Positions 2-4,869 of a stretch of 4,869 nucleotides of DNA are shown in pieces (the stretch's first letter is position 1; every line of letters begins with the position of its first letter). The notes under the pieces were generated by a model. That model did no database searches and was not told the DNA's origin. It worked only from the letters and a program-made list of their open reading frames with translations. The stretch lies in the IMG/VR virus record IMGVR_UViG_3300018486_000082; one strand, 5' to 3'. The DNA is from a virus. Lineage: Duplodnaviria > Heunggongvirae > Uroviricota > Caudoviricetes. The translations under genes were made by a program, and so were the position numbers.

Positions 2-1429
2 CGGGCAGATGATCTGGTGCGCAATAACGGAATAGCGGCTAATGCGGTGGCCCTGCATAAGGATCACATTGTCGGGCATATGTTTCTGATCAGCTACCGT
101 CCGAACTGGCGCTGGCTGGGGATGCGGGAGACCGCAGCAAAAAGCTTTGTCGATGAGGTGGAGGCGGCCTGGTCGGAATACGCAGAAGGGATGTCTGGCG
201 AGATCGACGTGGAAGGAAAACGCACATTTACGGAGTTTATCCGTGAAGGTGTTGGCGTTCATGCGTTTAACGGCGAAATCTTTGTGCAGCCGGTCTGGGA
301 TACGGAAACCACGCAGTTATTCCGTACGCGTTTTAAAGCTGTGAGTCCGAAACGGGTGGACACGCCTGGACACGGTATGGGGAACCGTTTTCTGCGGGCC
401 GGTGTGGAGGTCGATCGATATGGCCGTGCCGTCGCGTACCATATCTGTGAGGATGATTTTCCGTTCTCTGGGAGTGGACGATGGGAACGGATCCCGCGTG
501 AACTTCCCACCGGGCGTCCGGCCATGCTGCATATTTTCGAGCCGGTGGAGGACGGGCAGACCCGTGGGGCCAATCAGTTTTACAGCGTCATGGAACGGCT
601 GAAGATGCTCGATTCCCTGCAGGCAACACAGCTTCAGTCGGCCATAGTGAAGGCGATGTATGCAGCGACGATTGAAAGTGACCTTGATACCGAAAAGGCC
701 TTTGAATATATCGCCGGTGCGCCGCAGGGGCAGAAGGATAATCCGCTTATTAATATTCTGGATAAGTTCTCCACCTGGTATGACACGAATAGCGTGACGC
801 TGGGCGGTGTCAAAATTCCGCACCTTTTCCCTGGTGATGATCTGAAACTACAGACTGCGCAGGATTCAGACAATGGATTTTCTGCGCTTGAACAGGCGCT
901 GCTGCGGTATATCGCCGCCGGTCTTGGCGTTTCCTACGAACAGTTGTCCCGTGATTACTCGAAGGTCAGTTATTCAAGTGCCCGCGCATCCGCCAATGAG
1001 TCGTGGCGCTATTTTATGGGGCGGCGAAAATTTATTGCGGCCCGGCTGGCCACGCAGATGTTTTCCTGCTGGCTGGAAGAGGCACTTCTTCGGGGGATTA
1101 TTCGTCCGCCACGGGCACGTTTTGATTTTTATCAGGCGCGATCAGCCTGGTCACGGGCAGAGTGGATTGGTGCCGGAAGAATGGCCATTGACGGGCTCAA
1201 GGAAGTCCAGGAATCAGTGATGCGCATTGAGGCCGGACTGAGCACGTATGAGAAAGAGCTGGCGCTGATGGGCGAGGATTATCAGGACATTTTCCGCCAG
1301 CAGGTCAGGGAATCTGCAGAGCGGGAAAAAGCCGGACTCTCACGTCCGGTGTGGATAGCGCAGGCGTATCAGCAGCAGATAGCGGAGAGTCGCAGGCCGG
1401 AAGAGGAGACAACACCCCGTGAGACGTAA
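2..1429 (+). CDS. B: Portal protein (lambda gpB-like), 5'-partial; the reading frame is open to the window edge so the true start lies upstream
   Basis: Frame is open from nt 2 (RADDLVRNNG...) with no stop, so the ATG at 17 in the ORF track is probably internal. About 475 codons present, consistent with a portal of roughly 530 aa. Sits immediately upstream of, and overlaps, the head protease gene, as in lambda B-C. Stop TAA at 1427-1429. Assignment rests mainly on synteny and size; I cannot align it to gpB from memory. Confidence 0.78.
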   Translation, partial: RADDLVRNNGIAANAVALHKDHIVGHMFLISYRPNWRWLGMRETAAKSFVDEVEAAWSEYAEGMSGEIDVEGKRTFTEFIREGVGVHAFNGEIFVQPVWDTETTQLFRTRFKAVSPKRVDTPGHGMGNRFLRAGVEVDRYGRAVAYHICEDDFPFSGSGRWERIPRELPTGRPAMLHIFEPVEDGQTRGANQFYSVMERLKMLDSLQATQLQSAIVKAMYAATIESDLDTEKAFEYIAGAPQGQKDNPLINILDKFSTWYDTNSVTLGGVKIPHLFPGDDLKLQTAQDSDNGFSALEQALLRYIAAGLGVSYEQLSRDYSKVSYSSARASANESWRYFMGRRKFIAARLATQMFSCWLEEALLRGIIRPPRARFDFYQARSAWSRAEWIGAGRMAIDGLKEVQESVMRIEAGLSTYEKELALMGEDYQDIFRQQVRESAEREKAGLSRPVWIAQAYQQQIAESRRPEEETTPRET

Positions 1430-2924
1430 TCTTTCACACATTATTGCCGCAGCATTCAATGAACCGCTGCTTCTGGAGCCCGCCTATGCGCGGGTTTTCT
1501 TTTGCGCGCTCGGGCGCGAGATGGGGGCAGCAAGTCTTTCGGTACCACAACAGCAGGTACAGCTTGATGCTCCCGGAATGCTGGCTGAAACGGACGAGTA
1601 CATGGCCGGAGGTAAACGACCGGCCCGTGTTTACCGGGTGGTGAACGGTATTGCGGTACTGCCGGTGACCGGCACGCTGGTGCACCGGCTGGGGGGGATG
1701 CGGCCATTTTCCGGAATGACTGGCTATGACGGCATTGTCGCCTGTCTTCAGCAGGCAATGGCAGATAGCCAGGTGCGGGGCATACTGCTGGACATTGACA
1801 GTCCGGGCGGGCAGGCCGCCGGCGCGTTTGACTGCGCTGACATGATTTACCGCCTCCGTCAGCAGAAGCCGGTCTGGGCACTGTGCAATGACACGGCCTG
1901 TTCTGCAGCCATGCTGCTGGCGTCGGCCTGCTCCCGACGGCTGGTTACCCAGACATCCCGTATCGGCTCCATTGGCGTGATGATGAGCCATGTCAGCTAT
2001 GCCGGTCATCTGGCGCAGGCCGGTGTGGATATCACGCTGATTTACTCAGGGACGCACAAGGTGGATGGCAATCAGTTTGAAGCCTTACCGGCAGAGGTTC
2101 GCCAGGACATGCAGCAGCGCATTGATGCGGCGCGCCGGATGTTTGCCGAAAAAGTGGCGATGTTTACCGGTCTGTCTGTTGATGCCGTCACGGGAACAGA
2201 GGCCGCCGTTTTTGAAGGTCAGTCCGGCATTGATGCCGGGCTGGCGGATGAATTAGTCAATGCGTCGGATGCCATCAGTGTGATGGCCACGGCGCTGAAC
2301 AGTAATGTCAGAGGAGGCACTATGCCGCAATTAACTGCAACGGAAGCCGCCGCGCAGGAGAACCAGCGAGTGATGGGGATCCTGACATGCCAGGAAGCGA
2401 AAGGACGTGAACAGCTTGCCACGATGCTGGCAGGACAACAGGGCATGAGCGTTGCACAGGCCCGGGCGATTCTGGCCGCGGCGGCACCGCAGCAGCCGGT
2501 GGCATCCACGCAGAGTGAAGCCGATCGCATTATGGCGTGTGAAGAAGCGAACGGTCGTGAACAACTGGCGGCAACGCTGGCGGCGATGCCGGAGATGACG
2601 GTGGAAAAAGCCCGCCCGATCCTGGCTGCTTCACCGCAGGCGGATGCCGGACCCTCACTCCGTGATCAGATCATGGCACTGGATGAGGCAAAAGGGGCTG
2701 AGGCGCAGGCTGAACAGCTGGCTGCCTGCCCGGGAATGACTGTGGAGAGCGCCCGGGCTGTGCTGGCTGCGGGATCAGGTAAGGCAGAACCGGTCTCTGC
2801 ATCCACAACCGCCCTGTTTGAACGCATCATGGCGAACCATTCACCGGCAGCGGTACAGGGTGGCGTGCCACAGACGTCAGCAGACGGTGATGCGGACGTG
2901 AAAATGCTCATGGCTATGCCATGA
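1419..2924 (+). CDS. C: Head maturation protease (S49/SppA-ClpP superfamily, lambda gpC-like) fused in frame to a C-terminal scaffold domain
   Basis: GTG start at 1419 preceded by GAGGAG (1403-1408, 10-nt spacer); overlaps the portal stop by 11 nt. N-terminus MRRNLSHIIAAAFNEPLLLEPAYARVFFCAL closely resembles recalled lambda gpC (..NLPHIASMAFNEPLMLEPAYARVFFCAL..). Conserved S49 core: NGIAVLPVTGTL, LLDIDSPGG, GAFDCADMI, KPVWALCNDTACSAAMLLASACSRRLVTQTSRIGSIGVMMSH, LIYSGTHKVDGN, GLADELVN. 501 aa; stop TGA 2922-2924. Confidence 0.9.
   Translation: MRRNLSHIIAAAFNEPLLLEPAYARVFFCALGREMGAASLSVPQQQVQLDAPGMLAETDEYMAGGKRPARVYRVVNGIAVLPVTGTLVHRLGGMRPFSGMTGYDGIVACLQQAMADSQVRGILLDIDSPGGQAAGAFDCADMIYRLRQQKPVWALCNDTACSAAMLLASACSRRLVTQTSRIGSIGVMMSHVSYAGHLAQAGVDITLIYSGTHKVDGNQFEALPAEVRQDMQQRIDAARRMFAEKVAMFTGLSVDAVTGTEAAVFEGQSGIDAGLADELVNASDAISVMATALNSNVRGGTMPQLTATEAAAQENQRVMGILTCQEAKGREQLATMLAGQQGMSVAQARAILAAAAPQQPVASTQSEADRIMACEEANGREQLAATLAAMPEMTVEKARPILAASPQADAGPSLRDQIMALDEAKGAEAQAEQLAACPGMTVESARAVLAAGSGKAEPVSASTTALFERIMANHSPAAVQGGVPQTSADGDADVKMLMAMP
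2322..2924 (+). CDS. nu3: Scaffolding protein (lambda gpNu3-like) from an internal in-frame start within the protease gene
   Basis: ATG at 2322 is in frame with the protease ORF ((2322-1419)/3 = 301) and is preceded by a near-consensus Shine-Dalgarno GAGGAGG (2311-2317) with a 4-nt spacer. Lambda Nu3 is likewise the in-frame C-terminal portion of C. The 200-aa product is Ala/Gln/Glu-rich and carries the RIMGIL..EEA.GREQ..PGMTV..AR.ILAA motif recalled from lambda Nu3. Separate expression is inferred, not shown. Confidence 0.6.
   Translation: MPQLTATEAAAQENQRVMGILTCQEAKGREQLATMLAGQQGMSVAQARAILAAAAPQQPVASTQSEADRIMACEEANGREQLAATLAAMPEMTVEKARPILAASPQADAGPSLRDQIMALDEAKGAEAQAEQLAACPGMTVESARAVLAAGSGKAEPVSASTTALFERIMANHSPAAVQGGVPQTSADGDADVKMLMAMP
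2367..2822 (+). repeat. Three tandem in-frame coding repeats (~47-53 codons each) inside the scaffold domain
   Basis: Protein-level repeats: R1 RVMGILTCQEAKGREQLATMLAGQQGMSVAQARAILAAAAPQQPVASTQSEAD (nt 2367-2525); R2 RIMACEEANGREQLAATLAAMPEMTVEKARPILAASPQADAGPSLRD (2526-2666); R3 QIMALDEAKGAEAQAEQLAACPGMTVESARAVLAAGSGKAEPVSASTTALFE (2667-2822); a fourth partial unit begins RIMANH at 2823. Shared motif I-M/L-x-x-x-E-A-x-G-x-E-Q-L-A...P-x-M-T/S-V-E-x-A-R-x-I/V-L-A-A. Nucleotide similarity between units is only moderate, so the duplication looks old. Confidence 0.7.
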
Positions 2925-2960: not shown

Positions 2961-3308
2961 ATGGTAACGAAAACCATCACTGAACAGCGTGCGGAAGTAC
3001 GTATTTTTGCCGGTAATGATCCGGCTCATACCGCCACAGGCAGCAGCGGGATTTCCTCGGCAACACCGGCACTGACGCCCCTGATGCTGGATGAAGCTAC
3101 CGGGAAACTGGTGGTCTGGGACGGACAGAAAGCCGGTAGTGCGGTTGGCATACTGGTACTGCCGCTTGAAGGCACAGAGACGGTACTGACGTATTACAAG
3201 TCGGGGACCTTTGCGACGGAGGCAATCCGCTGGCCTGAAAGTGTGGATGAACACAAAAAGGCAAATGCCTTTGCCGGCAGTGCCCTGAGTCACGCGGCGC
3301 TGCCGTAA
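2961..3308 (+). CDS. D: Head decoration protein (lambda gpD-like capsid stabilisation protein)
   Basis: ATG 2961 preceded by AGGAGG (2944-2949). 115 aa versus roughly 110 aa for lambda gpD. Motifs match recalled gpD: DPAHTAT, TPLMLD, KLVVWDG, AVGIL, YKSGTF, WPE, AFAG. Lies between the protease/scaffold and major capsid genes as in lambda. Stop TAA 3306-3308. Confidence 0.9.
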   Translation: MVTKTITEQRAEVRIFAGNDPAHTATGSSGISSATPALTPLMLDEATGKLVVWDGQKAGSAVGILVLPLEGTETVLTYYKSGTFATEAIRWPESVDEHKKANAFAGSALSHAALP

Positions 3309-3365: not shown

Positions 3366-4394
3366 ATGGGATTGTTTACGACCCGCCAGTTACTCGGTTA
3401 TACCGAACAAAAAGTTAAATTTCGTGCGCTGTTTCTGGAGCTGTTTTTCCGCCGTACGGTGAATTTCCATACCGAAGAGGTGATGCTGGACAAAATTACC
3501 GGAAAAACGCCGGTGGCGGCCTATGTCTCCCCGGTTGTTGAAGGAAAAGTGCTGCGTCATCGTGGTGGTGAAACCCGCGTGTTACGTCCGGGCTACGTCA
3601 AGCCGAAACACGAATTTAATTACCAGCAGGCGGTTGAGCGCCTTCCTGGTGAAGATCCGGCTCAACTGAACGATCCGGCTTACCGCCGTCTGCGTATCAT
3701 TACCGATAACCTCAAACAGGAAGAGCACGCGATTGTCCAGGTGGAAGAAATACAGGCGGTAAATGCTGTGTTGTATGGCAAATATACGATGGAAGGAGAC
3801 CAGTTCGAGAAAATTGAGGTCGATTTTGGCAGGTCGACGAAGAATAACATCACTCAGGGTAGTGGTAAGGAGTGGTCAAAACAGGATCGTGACACGTTCG
3901 ATCCTACACATGATCTTGACCTCTACTGCGACCAGGCCAGCGGTCTTGTGAATATTGCCATTATGGACGGTACCGTCTGGCGTCTTCTGAATGGTTTTAA
4001 GCTGTTCCGCGAAAAACTGGATACCCGTCGCGGTTCAAATTCTCAACTCGAAACGGCAGTGAAAGATCTGGGCGCAGTGGTGTCCTTCAAGGGGTATTAC
4101 GGCGATCTGGCCATTGTGGTGGCGAAAACGTCTTATATAGCAGAAGACGGTATCGAAAAACGTTATCTGCCGGAGGGCATGCTGGTTCTGGGGAATACTG
4201 CTGCAGATGGGATCCGTTGTTACGGTGCCATTCAGGATGCGCAGGCGTTGTCCGAAGGTGTGGTGGCTTCTTCCCGTTACCCGAAACACTGGCTGACCGT
4301 GGGCGATCCGGCCCGTGAATTTACCATGACGCAGTCCGCACCGCTGATGGTGCTGCCGGATCCGGATGAGTTTGTGGTGGTGCAGGTGAAATAA
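3366..4394 (+). CDS. E: Major capsid protein (lambda gpE-like)
   Basis: ATG 3366 preceded by AAAGGA (3351-3356). 342 aa versus roughly 341 aa for lambda gpE. Extensive matches to recalled gpE: TT.QLL, YVSP, PGYVKPKHE, DPAYRR.RII, QVEE.QAV.AVL.GKYTM, NNITQ, EWSK, EKLDTRRGSNS.LETAVKDLG, GDPAREFTM.QSAPLM, DPDEFV.VQ. Stop TAA 4392-4394. Confidence 0.93.
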   Translation: MGLFTTRQLLGYTEQKVKFRALFLELFFRRTVNFHTEEVMLDKITGKTPVAAYVSPVVEGKVLRHRGGETRVLRPGYVKPKHEFNYQQAVERLPGEDPAQLNDPAYRRLRIITDNLKQEEHAIVQVEEIQAVNAVLYGKYTMEGDQFEKIEVDFGRSTKNNITQGSGKEWSKQDRDTFDPTHDLDLYCDQASGLVNIAIMDGTVWRLLNGFKLFREKLDTRRGSNSQLETAVKDLGAVVSFKGYYGDLAIVVAKTSYIAEDGIEKRYLPEGMLVLGNTAADGIRCYGAIQDAQALSEGVVASSRYPKHWLTVGDPAREFTMTQSAPLMVLPDPDEFVVVQVK

Positions 4395-4402
4395 TCCGTG
4401 AG

Positions 4403-4431
4403 CGGGGGCGAAATGCCCCCGTGTCTTTTTT
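4403..4431 (+). terminator. Candidate Rho-independent (probably partial) terminator just after the major capsid gene
   Basis: Stem CGGGGGC (4403-4409), loop GAAAT (4410-4414), stem GCCCCCG (4415-4421); then TGTC and a TTTTTT run (4426-4431). The 7-bp all-GC stem plus T6 is terminator-like, but the 4-nt gap before the T-run is non-ideal. The next gene's SD lies immediately downstream, so read-through must occur if that gene is expressed from the same transcript. Confidence 0.5.
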
Positions 4432-4445
4432 CACAGGGGGCTGAT

Positions 4446-4829
4446 ATGGCAACAAAAGAAGAAAATCAGAAACGTCTTCGTCAACTGGCTGGCCTGCTGG
4501 GGCGCGAGGCGGATATGTCGGGGAGTGCTGCGGATATTGCGCAACGTGTGTCTGAGTGGGAAGAGGAGCTTGCTGCTTCCCGGGAGGGCATTATGCCTGG
4601 TGATGAGAGCGGGCCTGAGCAAAATCACACAGACGATGGTGAGCAGTTGCACAACACTGATGCTACGGATGATGTTAAAGCGGTCCGTGTGCGGAAATGC
4701 CTGCATGTGATGGGGTATTGCCCGGAGACAGGCCGTCCCGTTGAACTGACGTACCGGGGCATGCGTGTTCTGGTGCCGTCACCACTGGCGACAGCCATGA
4801 TACAGCACGGAACGGCTGAGCATGCGTGA
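4446..4829 (+). CDS. FI: DNA-packaging / head-completion protein, lambda gpFI-like (tentative)
   Basis: ATG 4446 preceded by AGGGGG (4435-4440, 5-nt spacer); 127 aa versus roughly 132 aa for lambda gpFI. Position directly after the major capsid gene matches lambda E-FI. Charged helical N-terminus (KEENQKRLRQLAGLL...AQRVSEWEEELAA), acidic linker and a small C-terminal domain resemble gpFI architecture as I recall it. The ORF track's upstream GTG at 4398 would translate through the terminator hairpin and lacks an SD, so I prefer 4446. Stop TGA 4827-4829. Confidence 0.55.
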   Translation: MATKEENQKRLRQLAGLLGREADMSGSAADIAQRVSEWEEELAASREGIMPGDESGPEQNHTDDGEQLHNTDATDDVKAVRVRKCLHVMGYCPETGRPVELTYRGMRVLVPSPLATAMIQHGTAEHA

Positions 4830-4841
4830 TTTTCAGAATGC

Positions 4842-4869
4842 AGATCGGAAGAGCGTCGTGTAGGGAAAG
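4842..4869. other. Illumina TruSeq adapter sequence (library artefact) at the 3' end of the window
   Basis: AGATCGGAAGAGCGTCGTGTAGGGAAAG is an exact 28/28 match to the start of the standard adapter read-through sequence AGATCGGAAGAGCGTCGTGTAGGGAAAGAGTGT (reverse complement of the TruSeq universal adapter 3' end). Not biological sequence. Confidence 0.85.

Follow-up and report, generated by a model that had tools for sequence, protein, structure and literature searches.

The DNA analysed here (the window) is a stretch of 4,869 nucleotides from a virus of the Caudoviricetes (IMG/VR record IMGVR_UViG_3300018486_000082), and it carries a head protease/scaffold gene whose 501-residue product contains three tandem, diverged copies of a module of about 40-48 amino acids (aa), at residues 307-452. 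Our overall reading, to which we assign a probability of roughly 0.88, is that these copies are three anciently diverged, three-helix modules of the Nu3 type, that they are held on flexible linkers and correspond to the Tri boxes of phage 21, and that they are present both in the protease and in a scaffold protein predicted from a nested gene. The identity of the three units with the Tri1, Tri and Tri3 boxes of that phage is close to certain. As to what the additional copies do, the main alternative is that units 2 and 3 are dispensable duplicates, relics of unequal recombination that act as a spacer while unit 1 alone works, as in lambda; this we consider unlikely, and the evidence on both sides is weighed together with the proposed role of the module. 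The protease/scaffold gene and its parts described below (domain, nested gene, units, linkers and tail) are on the plus strand.

Three diverged copies of one predicted three-helix module

A hidden Markov model (HMM) of the unit finds exactly three matches in the 501-aa protein, at aa 314-354, 367-405 and 414-452, with scores of 72-78 bits. Unit 1 comprises aa 307-354 (window 2337..2480; HMM match 314-354, 71.7 bits), unit 2 aa 367-405 (2517..2633; 77.8 bits) and unit 3 aa 414-452 (2658..2774; 73.1 bits). The units are separated by two linkers, both probably flexible: linker 1 (aa 355-366, AAPQQPVASTQS; 2481..2516), which is rich in Pro, Gln and Ala, and linker 2 (aa 406-413, SPQADAGP; 2634..2657). 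Pairwise Smith-Waterman scores between units are 81-97, as compared with means of 25-28 for composition-preserving shuffles (z = 14.2 for unit 2 against unit 1, 13.2 for unit 3 against unit 2 and 10.1 for unit 3 against unit 1), and none of the 2000 shuffles reaches the observed scores. In addition, three PHROG scaffold families each match the repeat region in three stretches.

The region is rich in Ala, Gln and Glu, and a supposed fourth unit scores at chance level, both of which speak for a chance similarity within an alanine-rich, low-complexity helical region; for units 1-3, however, this explanation is ruled out by the shuffles (z = 10-14), by the threefold PHROG matches and by a profile from independent homologues, which matches each unit at 72-78 bits and finds the three units of the Salmonella phage Gifsy-1 with 45-63 bits and independent E-values (i-E-values) of 1e-16 to 1e-21.

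In their nucleotides the units share only 57-66% identity, and more than half of the conserved residues are specified by different codons; the duplication is therefore old. Tandem Repeats Finder and a seed-based repeat finder, applied to the window DNA, return only short chance matches because the units are too diverged in nucleotides, and the repeat is visible only in the protein. Neither Pfam nor NCBIfam has a family for the unit, the sole match being a sub-threshold one to HHH (E = 0.095), and a sequence search of the PDB with the scaffold part returns only the Lac repressor, at the chance level (E = 0.33-0.59). An expansion or collapse of the tandem repeat by the assembler is likewise ruled out: the window appears to derive from a short-read contig, judging from an Illumina adapter in its last 28 bases, but the divergence of the units is beyond what could confuse an assembler, and an identical ungapped structure of 603 nt occurs in 1864 complete genomes, in M81255.1 and OL657228.1, which are phage 21 records independent of each other, and in many isolated phages.

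The original prediction, made from the letters of the window, had proposed three consecutive copies and had taken their divergence in DNA to mean an old duplication and no assembly artefact; the results above confirm both points. The coordinates that it gave, 2367-2822 (aa 317-468), do cover the units, although they begin about 10 residues past the predicted start of helix 1 at aa 307. It had also proposed the start of a fourth copy, and this part is rejected: the segment in question (FERIMA, aa 466-471) gives a z of about 0 or below and no unit HMM match, and phage 21 has FEHFMA at the same place. The segment is part of a C-terminal tail (aa 453-501, including ALFERIMA; 2775..2921) that is without any unit HMM match and is modelled with low confidence from aa 474 onwards (predicted local distance difference test, pLDDT, <50). 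In lambda a comparable ALDRLM segment follows the single unit, and the consensus of an 88-sequence family keeps a short motif after the unit, which suggests that FERIMA belongs to an ordinary C-terminal tail; the automatic alignment did not set the tails of lambda and the window protein opposite each other.

The repeat had been pictured as a helix-turn-helix, but AlphaFold2 predicts a three-helix module for a single unit (pLDDT 92). The helices of unit 1 span residues 307-322, 331-338 and 345-354 (pLDDT 92-96), and the full-length model places helices at 367-377, 380-389 and 395-403 in unit 2 and at 414-435 and 442-452 in unit 3. In the same model the units are separated by the linkers, with pLDDT <50 at residues 362-365 and 407-412, and the predicted architecture is that of beads on a string. 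In BFVD the fold of the unit is found again in C-terminal regions of other S49 prohead proteases from phages, with query-normalised TM-scores of 0.79-0.85 and E-values of only 0.017-0.45. Among the closest known systems are tandem three-helix binding modules such as the domains of staphylococcal protein A and the albumin-binding GA module of streptococci. The window protein does not have the two-helix hairpin at the extreme C terminus that characterizes the coat-binding helix-turn-helix domain of the P22 type.

Within a set of 88 homologues the unit is the most conserved element 3' of the protease, with the consensus ERxRIxxILxxxEAxGRxxLAxxLAxxTxMSVExAxAxLAAAP, and the module constitutes the conserved core of scaffold domains of the Nu3 type. 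The nearly invariant core positions I20, A26, A33, A37, A47 and L51 are all retained in units 2 and 3 against a background of scrambled synonymous sites, an indication of purifying selection on both. In unit 3 (2658-2774) both near-invariant arginines are gone (R16 to Q, and GR to GA) and the hydrophobic/alanine core is intact; the loss may reflect a functional divergence of that copy.

The Tri boxes of phage 21 and the single module of lambda

The gene is 98.3% identical in nucleotides to gene 5 of phage 21, ungapped over all 1506 bases. The original prediction was right to class the feature as a version of a known system. The two proteins differ by point substitutions only, at 12 of 501 residues, of which A346E and A373V are in the units and four are in the tail. 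In the GenBank record M81255.1 ("Bacteriophage 21 head gene operon"), gene 6 contains three repeat_regions, labelled "Tri1 box", "Tri box" and "Tri3 box" and all described as "function unknown; putative". Transferred to the window through the ungapped alignment (offset 1082), these boxes fall at 2389-2492, 2529-2639 and 2670-2783, respectively, where they overlap units 1, 2 and 3 in turn and coincide with the units as located independently by Smith-Waterman comparison and the unit HMM. As judged from this annotation, the triplication is already known. The phage 21 records M81255.1 and OL657228.1 (gp5, head-tail preconnector; gp6, scaffold) also share with the window the nested start, the ribosome-binding site (RBS) and the positions of the three units, and the flanking portal, decoration (shp) and major capsid genes are the same.

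The repeats are carried by two predicted products, the 501-aa S49 protease (gp5) and a 200-aa scaffold (gp6). The S49 peptidase domain extends over aa 146-293 by Pfam (PF01343, E = 4.8e-35; 1854..2297), the whole protease part being about aa 1-298. A profile of the protease matches the SppA structures 4kwb and 3rst (E = 1e-40), residues S162 and K214 are invariant across the 88 homologues, and the domain is modelled by AlphaFold2 with pLDDT >90. The repeats were expected downstream of this protease core, in the Nu3-like scaffold part, and that is where they are. The nested in-frame scaffold gene (2322..2924; phage 21 gene 6, an analogue of lambda Nu3) starts at Met302 and is preceded by a strong Shine-Dalgarno sequence, AGAGGAGG, read directly from the window at 2310..2317. 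Its ATG at 2322 stands 4 nt after GGAGG, where the window reads AGAGGAGGcactATG. The phage 21 records annotate the RBS at locus positions 3393-3397, equivalent to window 2311-2315, and both start gene 6 (the scaffolding protein) at the equivalent of window 2322. This GGAGG-ATG pair is predicted to give a separate Nu3-like scaffold protein of 200 aa.

In the complete phage 21 genome (OL657228.1) the scaffold gene is additionally marked with two "CII binding sites" (TTGYN6TTGY). The sites (window 2327-2340 and 2561-2574, minus strand) are attributable to chance, as two are seen against 0.88 expected and 41 of 200 shuffles contain at least two.

Lambda gpC and gpNu3 share with the window the gene order, the S49 domain, the protease-plus-scaffold design and the conserved module ENSRIMGILNCEEAHGREEQARVLAETPGMTVKTARRILAA in the scaffold part. 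Alignment and the unit HMM agree on exactly one unit in gpC (439 aa), at aa 357-397, against three in the window protein; a single copy in lambda had been stated in the original prediction, as had a length excess of about 60 aa over gpC, which is measured here as 62 aa. Lambda also has a 36-aa insert ahead of its module that is absent from the window protein, and no DNA similarity at the megablast level is seen between lambda and the scaffold region of the window. The annotated start of the scaffold is Met239 of gpC in lambda, inside the protease part, as opposed to Met302 in the window and phage 21 type. The lambda-type Nu3 start is unusable in the window protein because the residue aligned to Met239 is Ile (window 2103-2140). 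Lambda too has a Met (GGRMTKE; L003 2333) where the Met302 start of the phage 21 type lies. The annotated scaffold N-termini of the two types differ, and the lengths are nearly equal (201 aa in lambda, 200 aa in the phage 21 type).

A more distant three-unit relative is found in Salmonella. The prohead protease of Gifsy-1 (YP_001700609.1, 498 aa) has three units in the same order as the window protein, and its two downstream units are shorter than its first, as are window units 2 and 3; over the scaffold part, however, it is only 57.5% identical to the window protein.

Distribution, copy-number variants and gene context

The 603-base scaffold region with three units is present in 1864 of 5426 complete E. 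coli genomes (34%) at a coverage of at least 80%, and 58 of 60 rows taken at even intervals from the E. coli ranking match without gaps over all 603 bases. The lambda-type Nu3 region with one unit occurs in 3195 of the same 5426 genomes. By frequency the three-unit type ranks among the top two scaffold alleles of E. coli prophages. Of 115 phage records that match at all, 20 do so over the entire three-unit region, and they include phage 21, ev017, 4A7, the PhiR phages and Salmonella phage Gifsy-1. The triplication had been put forward as unusual; in abundance it is not, given its frequency in complete E. coli genomes and its occurrence in Gifsy-1, and it had been annotated earlier in phage 21.

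A different picture emerges from the family as a whole, which was surveyed by searching the protease part only (aa 1-300) against 1.84 billion cluster representatives and by counting units with an iterated profile in 116 representatives of at least 400 aa. One unit was found in 82 of these, none was detectable in 33, and a single representative (P0123, 505 aa) has three; in all, 83 of the 116 carry the module beyond their protease part. Three units are common among E. coli prophages and not in the diverse family. One unit is the family norm, and the triplication is confined to one lineage that is very abundant in enterobacterial prophages. In a few distant representatives, P0129 (844 aa), P0264 (698 aa) and P0259 (613 aa), the protease domain begins only at residue ~300-410, which suggests a fusion to an upstream gene, possibly the portal, or a missed stop in gene calling.

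Some of the history of the triplication can be read from comparison of the units. Of the three, unit 1 most resembles the family consensus and also the lone unit of lambda. It is 78% identical to unit 1 of P0123, a three-unit protein of the Gifsy-1 type, whereas for units 2 and 3 any pairing with the downstream units of P0123 gives 50-57% identity, with no clear one-to-one orthology. In the downstream units of both proteins (window units 2 and 3; P0123 aa 369-456) helix 1 is about three residues shorter than in unit 1 and in one-unit homologues. This shortening appears to be a shared derived feature and suggests that the triplication is older than the split between the phage 21 lineage and that of Gifsy-1 and P0123.

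Natural variants in unit number are found among close homologues, as near-identical E. coli alleles (P0084, P0097, P0040, P0002 and P0001). An allele of 451 aa has two units, the original units 1 and 2 being fused at CQEA|NGREQL, and one of 452 aa also has two, with unit 2 deleted at the junction AAAPQ|ADAGPS; linker 1 is the junction site of this deletion. In an allele of 482 aa, found in at least 1000 contigs, a 19-aa deletion removes the second half of unit 2 and leaves about 2.5 units. An allele of 551 aa carries an additional, fourth unit (junction ACPGMT|EMTVEKARP), and a single record of 657 aa has six unit HMM matches, the result of a larger duplication. The junctions of the 451-, 452- and 551-aa alleles join different units at corresponding points of the motif, the pattern that unequal recombination between them would leave.

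The whole window is a lambda-like block of head genes. It opens with the 3' part of the portal gene (17-1429; TIGR01539, E = 6e-198), whose end is overlapped by the GTG start codon of the protease/scaffold gene (1419..2924), the gene 5 counterpart in phage 21 and a homologue of lambda C; its 501-aa protein, identified from the open reading frame (ORF) list and the phage 21 identity, matches the head maturation protease family phrog_53 at E = 3e-228. Downstream are a D/shp-like decoration gene (2961-3308, 115 aa), an E-like major capsid gene (3366-4394, 342 aa) and an FI-like gene (ORF 4398-4829). The protease/scaffold gene, which follows the portal gene and precedes those for decoration and the major capsid protein, occupies a position collinear with phage 21 and lambda. 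Over bases 1 to ~4567 the window shares 97.5% identity with the head operon of phage 21; it is the head module, of the phage 21 type (Jouyvirus-like), of an E. coli prophage.

The similarity to phage 21 ends at ~4567, within the FI-like gene, and is followed only by a 33-base match at 4809-4841. Many E. coli prophages match ~4567-4841 whole, at 99.8%, and the gene is annotated there as gpFI; by sequence comparison ~4567 is a mosaic junction inside the FI-like gene. All matches of E. coli genomes to the window end at 4841. The last 28 bases (4842-4869, AGATCGGAAGAGCGTCGTGTAGGGAAAG) resemble the beginning of an Illumina TruSeq adapter, which indicates that adapter sequence contaminates the terminus of a contig built from short reads; whatever is read there, the ORF list included, should leave these bases out of account.

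Proposed role of the triplicated module

The lambda scaffold provides the closest guide to function. Nu3 has been reported to interact with itself and with C, B and E; it is needed for procapsid assembly, mature heads lack it, and the protease degrades it (PMC3224144). By analogy with these interactions, each module may be a protein-binding element that makes scaffold-scaffold, coat or portal contacts. The modules would assemble the initiator and bring coat subunits and the protease into the procapsid, and three copies would render the scaffold, and the protease that bears the same tail, multivalent in procapsid nucleation. The S49 protease would afterwards degrade or remove the scaffold modules. 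Such multivalent binding is offered as a tentative mechanism, and we hold it with somewhat less than even confidence.

The competing view of units 2 and 3 as a dispensable spacer draws on several of the observations above. A single unit suffices in lambda and in the 82 one-unit homologues of the family survey, and the common natural alleles of 451, 452 and 482 aa appear to do without all or part of unit 2. Moreover, units 2 and 3 have drifted much further than unit 1 in the comparison with P0123, and unit 3 has lost R16 and the arginine of its GR motif. Against this, units 2 and 3 preserve the hydrophobic and alanine core positions of the module, and all three units of Gifsy-1 still score well against the unit HMM. 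Conserved residues have been retained in spite of the divergence of their codons, and the three-unit form predominates within its lineage, as the evenly sampled E. coli matches illustrate. We hold dispensable duplicates to be the less likely account of units 2 and 3.

A further suggestion, more speculative and in our estimation rather improbable, is that the number of modules (1, 2, ~2.5, 3 or 4 among natural alleles of E. coli prophages) constitutes a valency that is adjustable by recombination and that tunes how the scaffold and protease engage coat or portal, with units 2 and 3 specialised through their shortened helix 1 and, in unit 3, the absence of the arginines. If this were true, a change in copy number would affect the efficiency or fidelity of assembly, or the compatibility with capsid alleles.

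As a discovery the triplication itself carries little weight, since it has been public in phage 21 from the deposit of M81255.1 onwards and is common. What our survey adds is a quantified distribution, evidence on the age of the triplication and a three-helix model, predicted with confidence, for the module. With natural alleles of one to four units, material is at hand for asking what the binding partners of the Nu3 module are and why three copies persist in one lineage.
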